In this document: positions 5,843 to 19,022 of the stretch, in pieces | Position numbering within the stretch: the stretch's first letter is position 1 | Layout of the letters: the number at the start of each line of letters is the position of its first letter | Virus record (IMG/VR): IMGVR_UViG_2529293040_000025 | Coordinates: 1-30,710 of that record | Origin: a virus | Taxonomy: Duplodnaviria; Heunggongvirae; Uroviricota; Caudoviricetes | Length of the DNA: 30,710 nt | Direction: 5' to 3' (one strand) | Translations under genes and position numbers: made by a program | The notes under the pieces: model-generated | Databases searched by the model: none | Seen by the model: the letters and a program-made list of their open reading frames with translations, nothing else | Told to the model about the DNA's origin: nothing

Positions 5843-6205
5843 TTAATGACCTGCTGCGCGTAGTTTTCCGTCAGGTTCACCGGCAAGAGTCAGTAATTGT
5901 CCCTGGTCTTCCTGCAGAATAGTCAGGCGACCACCGCGATTGACATACATCGGTGTTTCGGTGGTGTCTTCTTCGGAAATTTTCCCGCGGTTAGTCGGGC
6001 GAACATATGAGAGTTTGTGTTTGATTTTCACACGGTTCTCATCAAATGGTTCGATTTCCAGGTTGAGCGAGACCTTACCTTTGGTTTTCGTGTTCATCAC
6101 ACCGGAAGCGACTTCACTGAGAGCTGCGCCGATTTTGGTTTCAAATACGCCGCCGTCCAGCTCCCCGATAAATGCCTGCACATCAGTACTGCGTTCGCTA
6201 GCCAT
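5843..6205 (-). CDS. hypothetical protein (YfdP-like), first gene of the leftward operon
   Basis: Start set at MASERSTD (ATG at 6203-6205) with AGGAG upstream. The long N-terminal extension of the ORF-track ORF (to 6391) looks non-coding. Confidence 0.5.
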   Translation of the reverse strand: MASERSTDVQAFIGELDGGVFETKIGAALSEVASGVMNTKTKGKVSLNLEIEPFDENRVKIKHKLSYVRPTNRGKISEEDTTETPMYVNRGGRLTILQEDQGQLLTLAGEPDGKLRAAGH

Positions 6206-6546
6206 TTTGCTGCTCCTCATCATATCGACCCTGCAAGGTCGGTTAGTTTCTCCACAAAACAGAGAAGAACACCTGCGGTGGCAGCCGCCCGGATGGATTG
6301 GGTTATGAGCCCGTCGTCCGGTGATGTTCTTCTCTGTTTTGTAAAAAGAGCGGTACCAGCCGGAAGCAAGTGTACAAACTGGTACCGCCAAAGCAGTGGC
6401 TGTTGTGGTGACCGGTGCTGATCTCCGGCTTGCGGTTATTTCAGACTCTCACGGGCGTTTAATTGCCCCGCCGAACAGCTCTTTTCCGCAATAGCTGCAA
6501 TGTCTTTCGCGCATCAGCCTGCGCATTCACCACAACTCTAAAAACA

Positions 6547-6599
6547 AATGTAGGATATCCAACATGCGAGTGTCAAGAGTTTATGTTGGTTATCCTACA
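6547..6599 (-). promoter_or_regulatory. leftward early promoter (PL-like) with two 16-bp palindromic operators
   Basis: On the minus strand, TTGACA (plus 6571-6576), 18-nt spacer, TACATT (plus 6547-6552). Operators TGTAGGATATCCAACA (6549-6564) and TGTTGGTTATCCTACA (6584-6599) share half-sites with the right operators. Confidence 0.55.
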
Positions 6600-6616
6600 T
6601 AAAAAGATAGGCTCAT

Positions 6617-6642
6617 AAAAAAACCGGGGATACCCCGGTTTT
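6617..6642 (-). terminator. rho-independent terminator downstream of the repressor gene
   Basis: CCGGGG-ATA-CCCCGG hairpin followed on the minus strand by a 7-T run, just 3' of the repressor stop at 6663. Confidence 0.65.
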
Positions 6643-6662
6643 GCGATAGTGAGGAAGATGTG

Positions 6663-7316
6663 TCAAAAATCCATTATTACTTGTTTGACAAGACCAACTA
6701 TTCTGCAGTTCTCACCGCATTCAATAGTTTTATAGTTAGGATTTAGTGGGACGAGATACCTGTTCGGCCAGTCCTCAACAAATTTTTTGAGTGTCGCTTC
6801 TTGCCCACCATTGATATGGGCAACAACGATTTTTCCGTTAATACACTCTGTATCAATAATATCTGGCTCTACGATAACGATAGAACCTTCTGGTATCGAT
6901 GGTGAGCCGAGGGGATTGGTCATTGAATCACCACGGACCCGTAGTGCAAATGCCATTTCTGATACAAGGGCGGTAGTATAAACCCACTCTTCAGCATCTT
7001 CTTTCCTGACACCAGGCTCCGTCATTGTCCATGAACCCGCCTGAACCCACGAGATTAGGGGGACTTTTTTAACTGCGAATATTTCAGGTTTTAGATTTAT
7101 CTTTGGTTCAGGCGAGCCTTTTCCGCTAACAAGCCACAGAGGATCGCATTTAAGTGCGTTGGCTAGGGCTTGAAGGTTGGCTCCATTTGGTTGGTAGTCG
7201 TCCTTTTCCCATCCAGTAACCGTGACACGGTTCACACCAGTCAAATCAGCCAGTGCTTGTTGTGTCAGGTTCAGTTCTTTTCGCCTTTGGCGAATACGAT
7301 CACTCATGTTCATCAT
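6663..7316 (-). CDS. CI-like prophage repressor (HTH_XRE N-terminus, S24 LexA-like peptidase C-terminus)
   Basis: N-terminal HTH (LTQQALADLTGVNRVTVTGWE) and C-terminal autocleavage domain with the GDSM serine motif and a downstream lysine. Divergent from the Cro-like gene across an operator region. Start could be 7316, 7313 or 7307. Confidence 0.85.
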   Translation of the reverse strand: MMNMSDRIRQRRKELNLTQQALADLTGVNRVTVTGWEKDDYQPNGANLQALANALKCDPLWLVSGKGSPEPKINLKPEIFAVKKVPLISWVQAGSWTMTEPGVRKEDAEEWVYTTALVSEMAFALRVRGDSMTNPLGSPSIPEGSIVIVEPDIIDTECINGKIVVAHINGGQEATLKKFVEDWPNRYLVPLNPNYKTIECGENCRIVGLVKQVIMDF

Positions 7317-7381
7317 GTAGGCAATCCTACCACATGCCCATGTAGGATTCTTGACATTGGCATGTTGGATATCCTACATTT
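7316..7381 (+). promoter_or_regulatory. rightward early promoter (PR-like) with three operator sites
   Basis: TTGACA (7351-7356), 18-nt spacer, TACATT (7375-7380), then GGGAG and the cro ATG at 7412. Operator-like palindromes TGTAGGCAATCCTACC (7316-7331), TGTAGGATTCTTGACA (7341-7356) and TGTTGGATATCCTACA (7363-7378). Confidence 0.55.
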
Positions 7382-7636: not shown

Positions 7637-8221
7637 GTGGGTAAAGAACCTGAATGGAAAGTTGATAAACAACCAGCATGGCTGGTGGCAGCAATACGAA
7701 GAACGATTGCTGATTTACCTCATGGCTATGAGGAAGCAGCAGAAATTCTTGGTTTGTATAAATCTGATGATATCACCCCAGCAAAAGATCAATTGCATAA
7801 CAGACTGCGTAGCGGTGGGGATCAAATTTTTCCACTTGAGTGGGCCATGGTTTTACAGGATGCCAGTGGTACCAGGCATGTAACGGATGCGATAGCGCGT
7901 CGTAGTAATGGGGTGTTTGTGCCGCTGGTGGACATTGATGACATTGACAATGGTGACATTAATCAGCGGCTGATGGAGTCAATAGAATGGATTGGCAAGC
8001 ATTCCCAGTACTTACGCAAGGCAACTGCTGATGGAGTTATTGACCAGGCTGAGCGTGAGCAAATCGAAGAGAACAGCTACCAAGTAATGGCGAAGTGGCA
8101 GGAGCATTTAACACTGTTATTTCGTGTTTTTTGTGCACCGGAAAAGAGTAACGCCCGCGAGTGTGCAGCTCCGGGCGTCGTGGCGTCGATTGCTTCTGGT
8201 TGTGGAGAAACTAACGCATGA
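7637..8221 (+). CDS. CII-like regulatory protein (YmfL / phage 186 CII family)
   Basis: GTG start with GAGGA RBS. Position after cro and length (194 aa) fit the e14 YmfL-type regulators as recalled. ATGA overlap couples it to the next gene. Confidence 0.5.
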   Translation: MGKEPEWKVDKQPAWLVAAIRRTIADLPHGYEEAAEILGLYKSDDITPAKDQLHNRLRSGGDQIFPLEWAMVLQDASGTRHVTDAIARRSNGVFVPLVDIDDIDNGDINQRLMESIEWIGKHSQYLRKATADGVIDQAEREQIEENSYQVMAKWQEHLTLLFRVFCAPEKSNARECAAPGVVASIASGCGETNA

Positions 8222-8546
8222 ACAGTTTAACGGCAAATAACCGTTTGTCGCAACAGCTGGTGGTCAGCGTCGCTGAACACCTGTTGTTACGGCATGAATG
8301 CAGATTACCAAATCACCTGGCTGTAAGTAACCACAGAGAACTTTACCTGACTGTGGGGGGCGAGTTGTGCAGGAACTTAACCGCTGGTTTCGTGACGGAA
8401 GAGGGCTTTATGTCCATGTTATTCGTTGGGAGCCAGAAACACAGCGCGTTATCTATCTTCGCAAAGACTACCCGCATGAGTGCTTTAGTCCTTTGTGGAA
8501 ATTCAGGCGTGATTTTGTTGAGTGTGAAGGACCACCAGCACATTGA
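8218..8546 (+). pseudogene. YmfM-like gene, apparently frameshifted in a G6 run (8355-8360)
   Basis: Frame A from ATG 8218 reads MNSLTANNRL...; a more protein-like frame (VVQELNRWFRDGRGLYVHVIRWEPETQRVIYLRKDYPHECF...) continues from the G-run to a TGA at 8544-8546. One extra G would join them into a ~109-aa protein. The alternative is the single 387-aa ORF reported by the ORF track. Confidence 0.3.
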
Positions 8547-8823
8547 TTCTGCCATTCCGGGACGTTACACTGTTCAGGCACCTTATAAAGCGGGTGCCGG
8601 GATTGGCGTCCTGAAATTGATTACTGAGCATAACCGCGCTCATGCGGTTTTTTCGTGTCATGAGCATTGCTACGCCCAAATTATGGTGGGGCGTACAGGG
8701 CCGACTTCGGTCGGGCCGGGTTCGGTAGTCTCCGGTAACGCCAACCCTGTACGTCTCACCACCTCTGTGATTGGCGTCCCATGTGGTGAGTTTTCTGAAA
8801 AACTGACTACCGGGGCTGTCACC

Positions 8824-17179: not shown

Positions 17180-17256
17180 CCGCCATTAGCTCATCGGGAT
17201 AGAGCGTCAGCCTTCGAAGCTGGCTGTGCGGGGTTCAAGTCCCCGATGGCGGTCCA
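17180..17256 (+). tRNA. argN: tRNA-Arg (anticodon TCG)
   Basis: 77 nt; acceptor stem CCGCCAT/ATGGCGG; T-loop TTCAAGT; anticodon loop CTTCGAA; ends CCA. Confidence 0.8.
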
Positions 17257-17269
17257 TTATCAGCATCAT

Positions 17270-17346
17270 GCGTTGTTAGCTCAGTCGGACAGAGCAATTG
17301 CCTTCTAAGCAATCGGTCACTGGTTCGAATCCAGTACAACGCGCCA
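17270..17346 (+). tRNA. argO: tRNA-Arg (anticodon TCT)
   Basis: 77 nt; acceptor stem GCGTTGT/ACAACGC; anticodon loop CTTCTAA; T-loop TTCGAAT; ends CCA. Confidence 0.8.
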
Positions 17347-18708: not shown

Positions 18709-19022
18709 TTTTTTTATTTGCTGTTTATTAAAAATACTACTGCATGGTGAATCCCCCTGTGCGGAGGGGCGATCAGCAACCAGGTATATGGGATAATCGC
18801 GGATTCAGGTGCTGATACTGAATTCACCGGGAGGCACCCGGCACCATGCTTTGCCGCAAAAGTGTTGTTTCTGTTTTTCTCAAACTATCATCGTTATCCC
18901 TTTATTTCCGGCTGCGCATGGCGTGGCCTTTTTTTTACGACCAGCCACTGGCAGATGGCCATCCTGTAATTTGATTCCGGTTCCGGCTTTTTAACTCTGT
19001 TCCTGTACACGGGAGAAATTCG

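Follow-up and report, generated by a model that had tools for sequence, protein, structure and literature searches.

Our subject is the leader of the early leftward operon in a 30,710-nt stretch of viral DNA (Caudoviricetes; IMG/VR record IMGVR_UViG_2529293040_000025), which we call the window and whose coordinates are used throughout. The DNA is that of a lambdoid prophage belonging to the mEp460 / SfV / ST64B / Stx2c-phage group. The leader extends from the early promoter PL to the first leftward gene, an open reading frame (ORF) of the yfdP family, behind which the operon continues with yfdQ/DUF2303 and an HD phosphatase. On its other side, the repressor gene is followed by a strong terminator (6620-6642) and then by two copies of an 18-mer operator (6548-6565 and 6583-6600), which recurs identically at the rightward promoter PR. 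The −35 and −10 elements of PL, TTGACA at 6576-6571 and TACATT at 6552-6547 on the minus strand, form a TTGACA-18-TACATT promoter (6576-6547) that is found again in rightward orientation at 7351-7380 (plus), within an operator and promoter architecture repeated as a whole at PR (7317-7380). These operator repeats and the promoter scan bear out the PL-like promoter named in a preliminary description of this DNA, and the position of the promoter puts the probable start of the PL transcript near 6540. The late genes are served by a Q-like protein (15800-16594).

Within this leader, the preliminary description had pointed to two large stem-loops, and both are functional RNA elements of the PL transcript. 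The perfect 16-bp repeat that it reported is contained in a perfect 18-bp core (6254-6271 / 6325-6342), itself part of 25-nt arms (6254-6278 / 6318-6342) that the repeat search found to be 88% complementary, and its 10-bp repeat is likewise perfect (6350-6359 / 6379-6388). On the minus strand the 346-nt leader (6200-6545) folds at −140.4 kcal/mol, as compared to −108.3 ± 6.1 kcal/mol for shuffled sequences (z = −5.3), a value equaled by none of 100 shuffles. We refer to the large structure as element B, to the small one as hairpin T, and to the domain upstream of both as module A (Table 1).

Table 1. Coordinates of the leftward leader elements and of the neighboring features discussed in the text.
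Feature	Position	Strand	Basis and remarks
Repressor gene (S24-HTH)	6663-7316	minus	
PL promoter with two OL operators	6547-6600	minus	repeat search and promoter scan
Module A, 136 nt; closing helix GUUGUGGUGA / UCACCACAAC (6527-6536 with 6402-6411)	6401-6536	minus	repeat search, folding
Single-stranded seed AGCCACUGCUUU	6390-6401	minus	between module A and T; compared with relatives
Hairpin T; stem 6349-6361 / 6378-6390, then UCUUUUU (6343-6349)	6343-6390	minus	repeat search, folding, relatives
Element B, three-way junction	6254-6342	minus	folding, alignment, covariance model
B helix P1, 20 bp	6323-6342 with 6254-6273	minus	
B helix P2a	6317-6321 with 6289-6293	minus	
B helix P2b, GGG/CCC, loop CUCAUAA	6300-6312	minus	
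B helix P3	6275-6288	minus	
Invariant apex of B, CGGGCUCAUAACCC	6300-6313	minus	alignment and comparison with tRNA
Conserved 15-mer UGUGGAGAAACUAAC, L copy, directly 3′ of B	6242-6256	minus	alignments
Hairpin C, CGACCU-UGCA-GGGUCG	6226-6241	minus	alignments of relatives
First leftward gene, yfdP family (phrog_204), product of unassigned function	5843-6205	minus	
Predicted oop-like antisense RNA at the 3′ end of the cII-like gene	8138-8219	minus	antisense pairing; synteny with lambda cII/oop

The conservation of this leader was followed through the regions upstream of yfdP homologues, sampled at one genome per species with ST64B, LLS, phiNP and Kp4866-6 added, and through a further 120 IMG/VR contigs that carry the apex motif of B, giving 116 unique leader variants in total; the pattern by which most of these relatives were gathered required that apex motif. 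The alignments keep one order along the leftward transcript, namely T with its U tract, B, a 12-15-mer, the GC hairpin C, a Shine-Dalgarno sequence and the start codon. Prophages from about 20 genera of enterobacteria retain both inverted repeats, with base changes that compensate one another, and the conservation is confined to the leftward (PL) transcript. The preliminary description had made its proposal depend on conservation of the pairing in related phages; the pairing is retained there, with covariation. The gene behind B, the 15-mer and hairpin C is yfdP in some phages and RdgC-like or of another kind in others, and the module thus belongs to the operon leader rather than to any single gene. 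Hairpin C sits just upstream of the ribosome-binding site; its stem varies among relatives, while the loop is usually (U/G)UGCAG or GGCA. Established here are the structures and their strand, their conservation and covariation, the modular context, the duplication of the 15-mer, a terminator on the antisense strand at its second copy, and non-membership in the put family of antitermination RNAs. Literature searches for the motif sequences, for yfdP/yfdQ and for ST64B small RNAs returned nothing on this leader. Two Escherichia coli chromosomes (L005, L014) carry yfdP copies that are 98% identical and stand without the whole T–B leader, the last 34 nt alone being common; by chromosomal position, these copies appear to be a rearranged CPS-53/KpLE1 remnant.

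When the three-way-junction model of element B is imposed on 26 diverse sequences, 95.6% of the cells are paired and compensatory changes occur in 12 pairs, which none of 500 shuffles equaled, whereas controls in which the model was slid along the alignment reach 44-61% paired cells and 1-3 covarying pairs. Helix P1 is exactly 20 bp long, with no insertion or deletion across these sequences, and is extendable by five wobble-rich pairs between the U tract at 6343-6347 and GGAGA at 6249-6253. The apical part is of two kinds: P3 tolerates insertions of 25-30 nt, and P2 is almost invariant. A search with a covariance model of B finds a single copy per phage, the window included; there the score is 140.6 bits for the minus strand, as compared to 41.4 bits for the plus strand. 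Since the frequent U-G pairs of B would read as A-C on the other strand, and given these scores, the structure belongs to the PL transcript. The same model retrieves, at 84 bits, a divergent copy from a sequence outside the seed alignment (L029), and it finds no second copy in the window, including the PR and late leaders, nor any copy in HK022, Qin, HK639, phiEt88 or CobraSix. Rfam 15 holds no family for B, its matches being microRNA-type noise alone, and the motif sequences are absent from the searchable literature. B is a widespread leader RNA motif that has hitherto gone undescribed.

Hairpin T, immediately upstream of B, is of a more familiar kind. Its 13-bp GC-rich stem contains the 10-bp repeat mentioned above, and on the transcribed strand it is followed by UCUUUUU, the whole reading GGCGGUACCAG(loop)CUGGUACCGC-UCUUUUU-ACA. 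A hairpin lies directly before five to seven U's in 112 of the 116 unique variants, comprising 59 distinct hairpin sequences and several unrelated stems; such varied sequence before a constant U tract is as expected of a terminator and not of a sequence-specific site. With its GC-rich hairpin, U tract and covariation, T has the form of an intrinsic terminator and of the 3′ end of a small RNA. The 5′ arm GGCGGUACCAG was also compared with the consensus of the RfaH ops site: it matches the first seven bases alone, and relatives differ. The seed that precedes T falls into classes. Most relatives carry UGCUGUGUGUAGUCUU, which in phage LLS is aligned by Rfam to the 3′ half of RprA, the RprA-like seed being present there together with the hairpin; other relatives have GCGUGGUAGUUGUUU, resembling DicF, and the window-type seed is AGCCACUGCUUU. 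Pairing of the seed with the arms of B was considered and set aside, as it shows no correlation across the seed classes.

Upstream of the seed, the leaders contain a domain of 120-270 nt closed by GUUGUGG.../...CCACAAC, of which module A (6401-6536) is the window's version. At exactly this position ARAGORN calls a tRNA in a Phytobacter prophage (L018), and in the P1-like phage RCS47 a segment that adjoins tRNA-Thr and tRNA-Asn has 98.5% identity to module A itself. By its sequence, module A reads as a tRNA-like or tRNA-derived domain, with a closing helix that behaves like a tRNA acceptor stem, and as the probable 5′ body of a leader small RNA. The P1-like phage JL22 and the Klebsiella phage IME207 also carry module A at 98.5% identity, and in RCS47 and JL22 the sequence is annotated as part of "plp"; the module seems to be passed as one piece between unrelated phages. 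Within it is a 25-codon ORF (6449-6526, MRRLMRERHCSYCGKELFGGAIKRP) that is probably not coding. In two other relatives (L137, L144), the domain upstream of the seed resembles a tRNA that bears a large insertion and whose anticodon loop is of the CAU type (GGAUCAUAACC, GGUUCAUAACC), for which ARAGORN makes no call.

The arrangement of module A, seed and terminator has close counterparts among known small RNAs. The first is DicF, from the PL-like dicBF operon of prophage Qin. This operon, too, is an early leftward one in a lambdoid prophage, and in DicF a structured domain closed by GUUGUGG.../...CAAC again lies upstream of a single-stranded seed and of a terminator with U tract. The terminators start nearly identically (UUUGGCGGUA[U/C]CAGUUU), the first 17 nt in K-12 Qin being those of the window bar one base. 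DicF reads UUUGGCGGUAUCAGUUU...GCCGCCCUUUUU, as compared to UUUGGCGGUACCAGUUU...ACCGCUCUUUUU in the window. It exists in 190-nt and 53-nt forms that arise from termination together with RNase III and RNase E (bioRxiv 10.1101/2023.04.14.536235). The two differ in that the window seed is AGCCACUGCUUU and the Rfam DicF model misses the window, and in that dicF comes after ydfABC in Qin and is followed by another A-type module instead of B. In K-12 Qin (L039), A-type domains lie at 2255-2380 and 2445-2590, that is, on either side of dicF (GUUGUGGC...GCUGCAAC upstream; UGUGAUGUGGUGAAUGCGG...CACCUGGAGGCACCAGGCACUGCAUCACA downstream, just before dicB), which means that the modules recur inside a single operon. 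The second counterpart is STnc100/PasD (RF02076), with which the leader shares a closing helix with GGUGAAU, a 3′ hairpin beside the closing strand, and the terminator; STnc100/PasD is found in leaders of lambdoid late regions, whereas here the setting is the PL leader, and the window's copy is too diverged for the Rfam model. Among relatives, Rfam STnc100 aligns end to end to an SfV-type leader (L004; 45.1 bits against a gathering threshold of 47, E = 1.3e-6) with its terminator falling on T, and reaches 35 bits on the ST64B leader, while the Rfam DicF model matches the T hairpin of another relative (L013) at 28.4 bits (gathering threshold 48). Based on this shared plan and on the tRNA-like module A, 6343-6540 may be read as a primary small RNA of about 195 nt, akin to DicF and STnc100.

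A full STnc100 is present elsewhere in the window (18716-18885, plus; 102.4 bits in Rfam). It has a promoter-like TTGATT-N17-TTAAAA in front, stands between a TerB gene on its upstream side and a 617-aa ORF on the other, and is followed about 40 nt beyond its end by a terminator-like GGCUGCGCAUGGCGUGGCC-U8. This copy and module A of the PL leader have in common GGUGAAU and a CCGG(G)AG...CACC(C)GG hairpin. Three tRNA genes stand in a row (17097-17343, plus) between the Q-like gene and the TerB gene.

What, then, does B do? Judged solely by its anatomy, its most likely role is RNase III processing, or the presentation of a target for an oop-like antisense RNA discussed below. The 20-bp P1 provides the approximately two turns of regular double helix expected of an RNase III site. 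In lambda and T7, the N leader and the early RNase III sites, respectively, place a large hairpin with a long helix before the first gene, and B resembles both in being a large hairpin with a helix of at least 20 bp between an early promoter and the first gene. It departs from them in its invariant three-way-junction apex and in having no nutL or N alongside, and its own cleavage is only a candidate event. The preliminary description had offered three options for the stem-loops, a protein-independent antitermination RNA like the HK022 put sites, a processing site, or a regulatory terminator. The last fits the small hairpin well and, of the three, a processing site seems the most plausible for the large one; the put-like option finds no support.

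The absence of a visible N-like antiterminator does hold: scans of the early ORFs with PHROGs and Pfam and a scan for arginine-rich motifs were all negative, and the annotated relative Stx2a_WGPS2 has no N between cI and int. The lack of N has been noted for SfIV and SfV (PMC3851460) and for phage LLS (PMC12315714). Nor is there a conserved boxA with a boxB hairpin in both early operons, as nut sites would require, and a boxA-like CGCUCUUUUUACA (6341-6353) was discarded as it is not conserved in relatives. In the HK022 system, put RNA acts in cis on RNA polymerase without a phage protein, via the beta-prime zinc-binding domain. The likeness to the window is that a lambdoid phage without N has a structured RNA in its early leader, but it extends to neither sequence nor structure: put consists of two stem-loops of about 70 nt with conserved bulges, as compared to the 90-120 nt of the B three-way junction, and local alignment with HK022 putL and putR scores at noise level. 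A put covariance model built from six put sequences, which gives 94.5 bits for HK022 putL and 47.3 bits for putR, returns noise of at most 10 bits at unrelated positions in the window and relatives, and nothing in 6200-6545. Moreover, put occurs once after PL and once after PR, whereas B is single, its apex motif occurring once in the window, and lies downstream of the only clear terminator of the leader. On these three grounds, the negative model, the single copy and the position after T, we reject membership in the put family, and a put-like function of the leader is of low probability.

In a broader form of the idea, N would be replaced by a new processive antiterminator RNA that needs no protein and functions like HK022 put or the Bacillus EAR element, this RNA being B by itself or B together with the 15-mer and hairpin C. 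Such a role would suit a conserved, structured element near the start of an early leftward operon in which no N-like protein is found, particularly one that is independent of the gene that follows, and a put-like mechanism has been speculated upon for phage LLS, which carries this leader (PMC12315714). We nevertheless consider it quite unlikely. The put covariance model is negative, the PR operon has no counterpart of the single B, B is positioned downstream of T, and a scan found no strong intrinsic terminator further along the leftward operon; a leaky terminator at T would in any case remove the need for an antiterminator.

The element directly 3′ of B leads from the leftward to the rightward operon. 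The 15-mer UGUGGAGAAACUAAC has only two exact copies in the 30.7 kb, at 6242-6256 (minus; L) and 8201-8215 (plus; R), each in the sense of its local early transcript. The R copy extends over the final codons of the cII-like gene and over the ribosome-binding site of the gene after it. Nearly all relatives whose flanking sequence is long enough have this copy, regardless of what that following gene is. L and R appear to co-vary in part, in the bases beside GGAGA and at position 7, with 54 of 57 unique L/R pairs concordant (UGU vs UAU). A common ribosome-binding site was tried as an explanation; it fits R, with GGAG 10 nt before the AUG at 8218, but at L the distance to the start codon is inconsistent.

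About 25-32 nt upstream of the R copy lies a hairpin whose pairing discloses its strand. Over 44 unique variants, all 352 of 352 cells are paired on the antisense strand, 25 of them as G-U, whereas on the sense strand 327 of 352 are paired and those 25 become A-C mismatches; on the antisense strand, the hairpin is then followed by a U-rich tail ACUCUUUUCUGG. In other words, a terminator stands on the antisense strand inside the 3′ end of a cII-type gene, as for lambda OOP. The predicted oop-like RNA would have as its terminator the complement of 8151-8178 with loop CUGCACA and tail UUACUCUUUUCC, and as its 5′ end GUUAGUUUCUCCACA, complementary to the R copy and hence to the L copy as well. An antisense RNA started at about 8217 would bear the complement of the 15-mer at its very 5′ end, which could allow it to pair with the PL leader as well. 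A candidate promoter, TTGCGA (8253-8248), 18 nt, TAAACT (8229-8224), has its −35 kept in 15 of 17 representatives and lies inside a conserved coding N-terminus. Taken together, the sequence suggests an oop-like transcript and its start site in the window. With lambda OOP it shares the location at the 3′ end of a cII-type gene, the antisense terminator and the A-run/U-run arrangement; it is unlike OOP in that the transcript is only predicted here, and in its second, trans target in the PL leader, which is not known for OOP.

A C4-like RNA (8679-8766) was also considered as partner of the 15-mer and was rejected, as phages with an identical 15-mer differ in the loops of this RNA, and as the R element is also found before O-like genes without a C4 module. 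This region of the window (8578-8766, plus) scores with Rfam as isrK (59.3 bits; terminator 8632-8649) and C4 antisense RNA (82.3 bits), inside an Ash/Rha "transcriptional regulator" ORF (8218-9381) whose Pfam Phage_ASH match (aa 117-212) covers the same nucleotides. GAUUGGCGUCC occurs on either side of the C4-like RNA (8601-8611 and 8769-8779) and is complementary to its ACGCCAA at 8738-8744, a target-repeat arrangement similar to that of P1/P4 immunity.

Alternatively, the 15-mer and a hairpin with a UGCAG-type loop, occurring once per early transcript, could be a nut-like site for an undiscovered RNA-binding antiterminator of phage or host. The symmetric L and R copies, both in the sense of transcription, and their partial co-variation would suit such a site, as would the UGCAG-type loops that hairpin C, helix P3 of B and the R hairpin have in common. 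We give this idea little credence, since L and R differ in whether the linear element or the hairpin comes first, full pairing of the R hairpin is seen on the antisense strand only and this hairpin is for that reason no sense-strand analogue of boxB, the boxA-like CGCUCUUUUUACA varies among relatives, and the PHROGs, Pfam and arginine-rich-motif scans yielded no candidate protein.

The apex of B raises a different prospect. Over all of its 14 nt, CGGGCUCAUAACCC matches exactly the anticodon stem-loop of metZ, the initiator tRNA of E. coli, the three G-C pairs included; ARAGORN finds no tRNA in 6000-6700, and the match is limited to this anticodon-arm 14-mer. The core of B could accordingly be a mimic of the initiator-tRNA anticodon arm that binds or decoys the 30S P site with IF3, MetRS, or the VapC-type anticodon nuclease of Shigella and Salmonella hosts, with the long helix merely presenting it. 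In its favor, the identity includes the CUCAUAA loop and falls on the most invariant part of B, tRNA-like modules adjoin B in the same leader, and the motif is also found on another hairpin scaffold in an unrelated contig (L077). However, loop positions 37 and 38 vary (AA, UC, UA), the divergent L029 copy lacks CAU, and the loop also fits a generic YUNR U-turn; the identity was noticed post hoc, in a motif that the pattern gathering most relatives required. We think a mimic very unlikely. The motif in L077 (GACGGGCUCAUAACCCAAUCC, 10448-10470) lies about 250 nt upstream of a tRNA gene in a phage contig of higher GC content. In the window, the tail of the cI terminator, UUAUGAGCC (6610-6618), is complementary over 9 nt to the apex of B (GGCUCAUAA, 6303-6311), which may be due to chance.

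That the region is instead protein-coding, through a 49-aa ORF (6220-6369) or the plus-strand ORFs annotated in some phage records, is scarcely conceivable: ORFs do exist on both strands, but the apical indels of 25-30 nt, a frame that is not kept among relatives, early stops of the candidate leader ORFs in some of these relatives, substitutions that restore pairing and are not codon-like, and the lack of any family match all speak against it. The idea of a leader peptide or small ORF spanning T and B was rejected on the same basis of an unconserved frame, early stops and indels that are not multiples of three. The plus-strand ORFs over the leader (6278-6421 in the window; equivalents such as mEp460_036 and mEp460_037 in other records) oppose the conserved RNA elements and are probably spurious.

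These elements can be assembled into a model of the leftward leader. Hairpin T with its U tract would be a leaky intrinsic terminator, and PL transcripts that stop there would form an RNA of about 195 nt with a tRNA-like domain, a seed and a terminator, an architecture that matches the long form of DicF and STnc100/PasD. Termination at this point would make T both an attenuator for the early leftward genes, from yfdP onward, and the 3′ end of a small RNA (an Hfq-type module). Transcripts that read through would fold B, which would act after transcription: RNase III cleavage at B may separate the small RNA from the downstream mRNA and leave the conserved 15-mer and hairpin C as the 5′ end of the latter. 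The 15-mer would then be the probable target of the oop-like antisense RNA from the end of the cII-like gene, linking the leftward and rightward early operons. We infer all of termination at T, small-RNA function, cleavage by RNase III, the oop-like transcript and its pairing with the leader. For the model as a whole, with T as a leaky terminator and a DicF/STnc100-like small-RNA end, B as a post-transcriptional element and candidate RNase III site, and the 15-mer as an oop-like RNA target, our confidence is about evenly divided.

Several observations weigh against it. Most relatives have a central C-C or C-U mismatch in P1, which is perfect in the window's lineage, and the invariant apex of B is not needed by RNase III, so that a processing site alone leaves the strongest conservation unexplained. 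The T loop is large (13-40 nt), and its U tract has just 5-7 U's. The window's own leader has no Rfam match to DicF or STnc100 at E ≤ 10, and as its sequence falls below every Rfam threshold, we do not claim formal membership in either family. The largest class of relatives has one mismatch between L and R, and the co-variation of the two could stem from gene conversion or shared ancestry rather than from RNA pairing. Finally, the conservation of the antisense promoter is ambiguous because it lies within a conserved coding N-terminus.

A bolder extension, which we consider rather unlikely as a whole, is that B founds an undescribed family of phage leader RNAs in which the apex copies the initiator-tRNA anticodon arm and the 3′ flank is a trans target of an oop-like RNA, the N-less early operons being coupled by RNA pairing and processing in place of protein antitermination. 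The small hairpin, by comparison, is of an ordinary kind, as a terminator and small-RNA 3′ end, and is of interest for where it stands.

Lambdoid phages that combine a lambda-like early region with the absence of N are numerous and include SfV, SfII, SfIV, ST64B, mEp460, LLS, phiNP and many Stx2a- and Stx2c-converting phages. As to how the leftward early genes of this group are activated, a 2025 paper offers a put-like guess only (PMC12315714). The present analysis rules out the put family and offers in its stead a conserved architecture, consisting of a tRNA-like domain, a DicF-type small RNA with its terminator, a new three-way junction, and a 15-mer that is duplicated beside an antisense terminator. 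By implication, a small RNA not listed before would be released from PL when Shiga-toxin prophages are induced; it would come in several seed variants and could affect the gene expression of the host.
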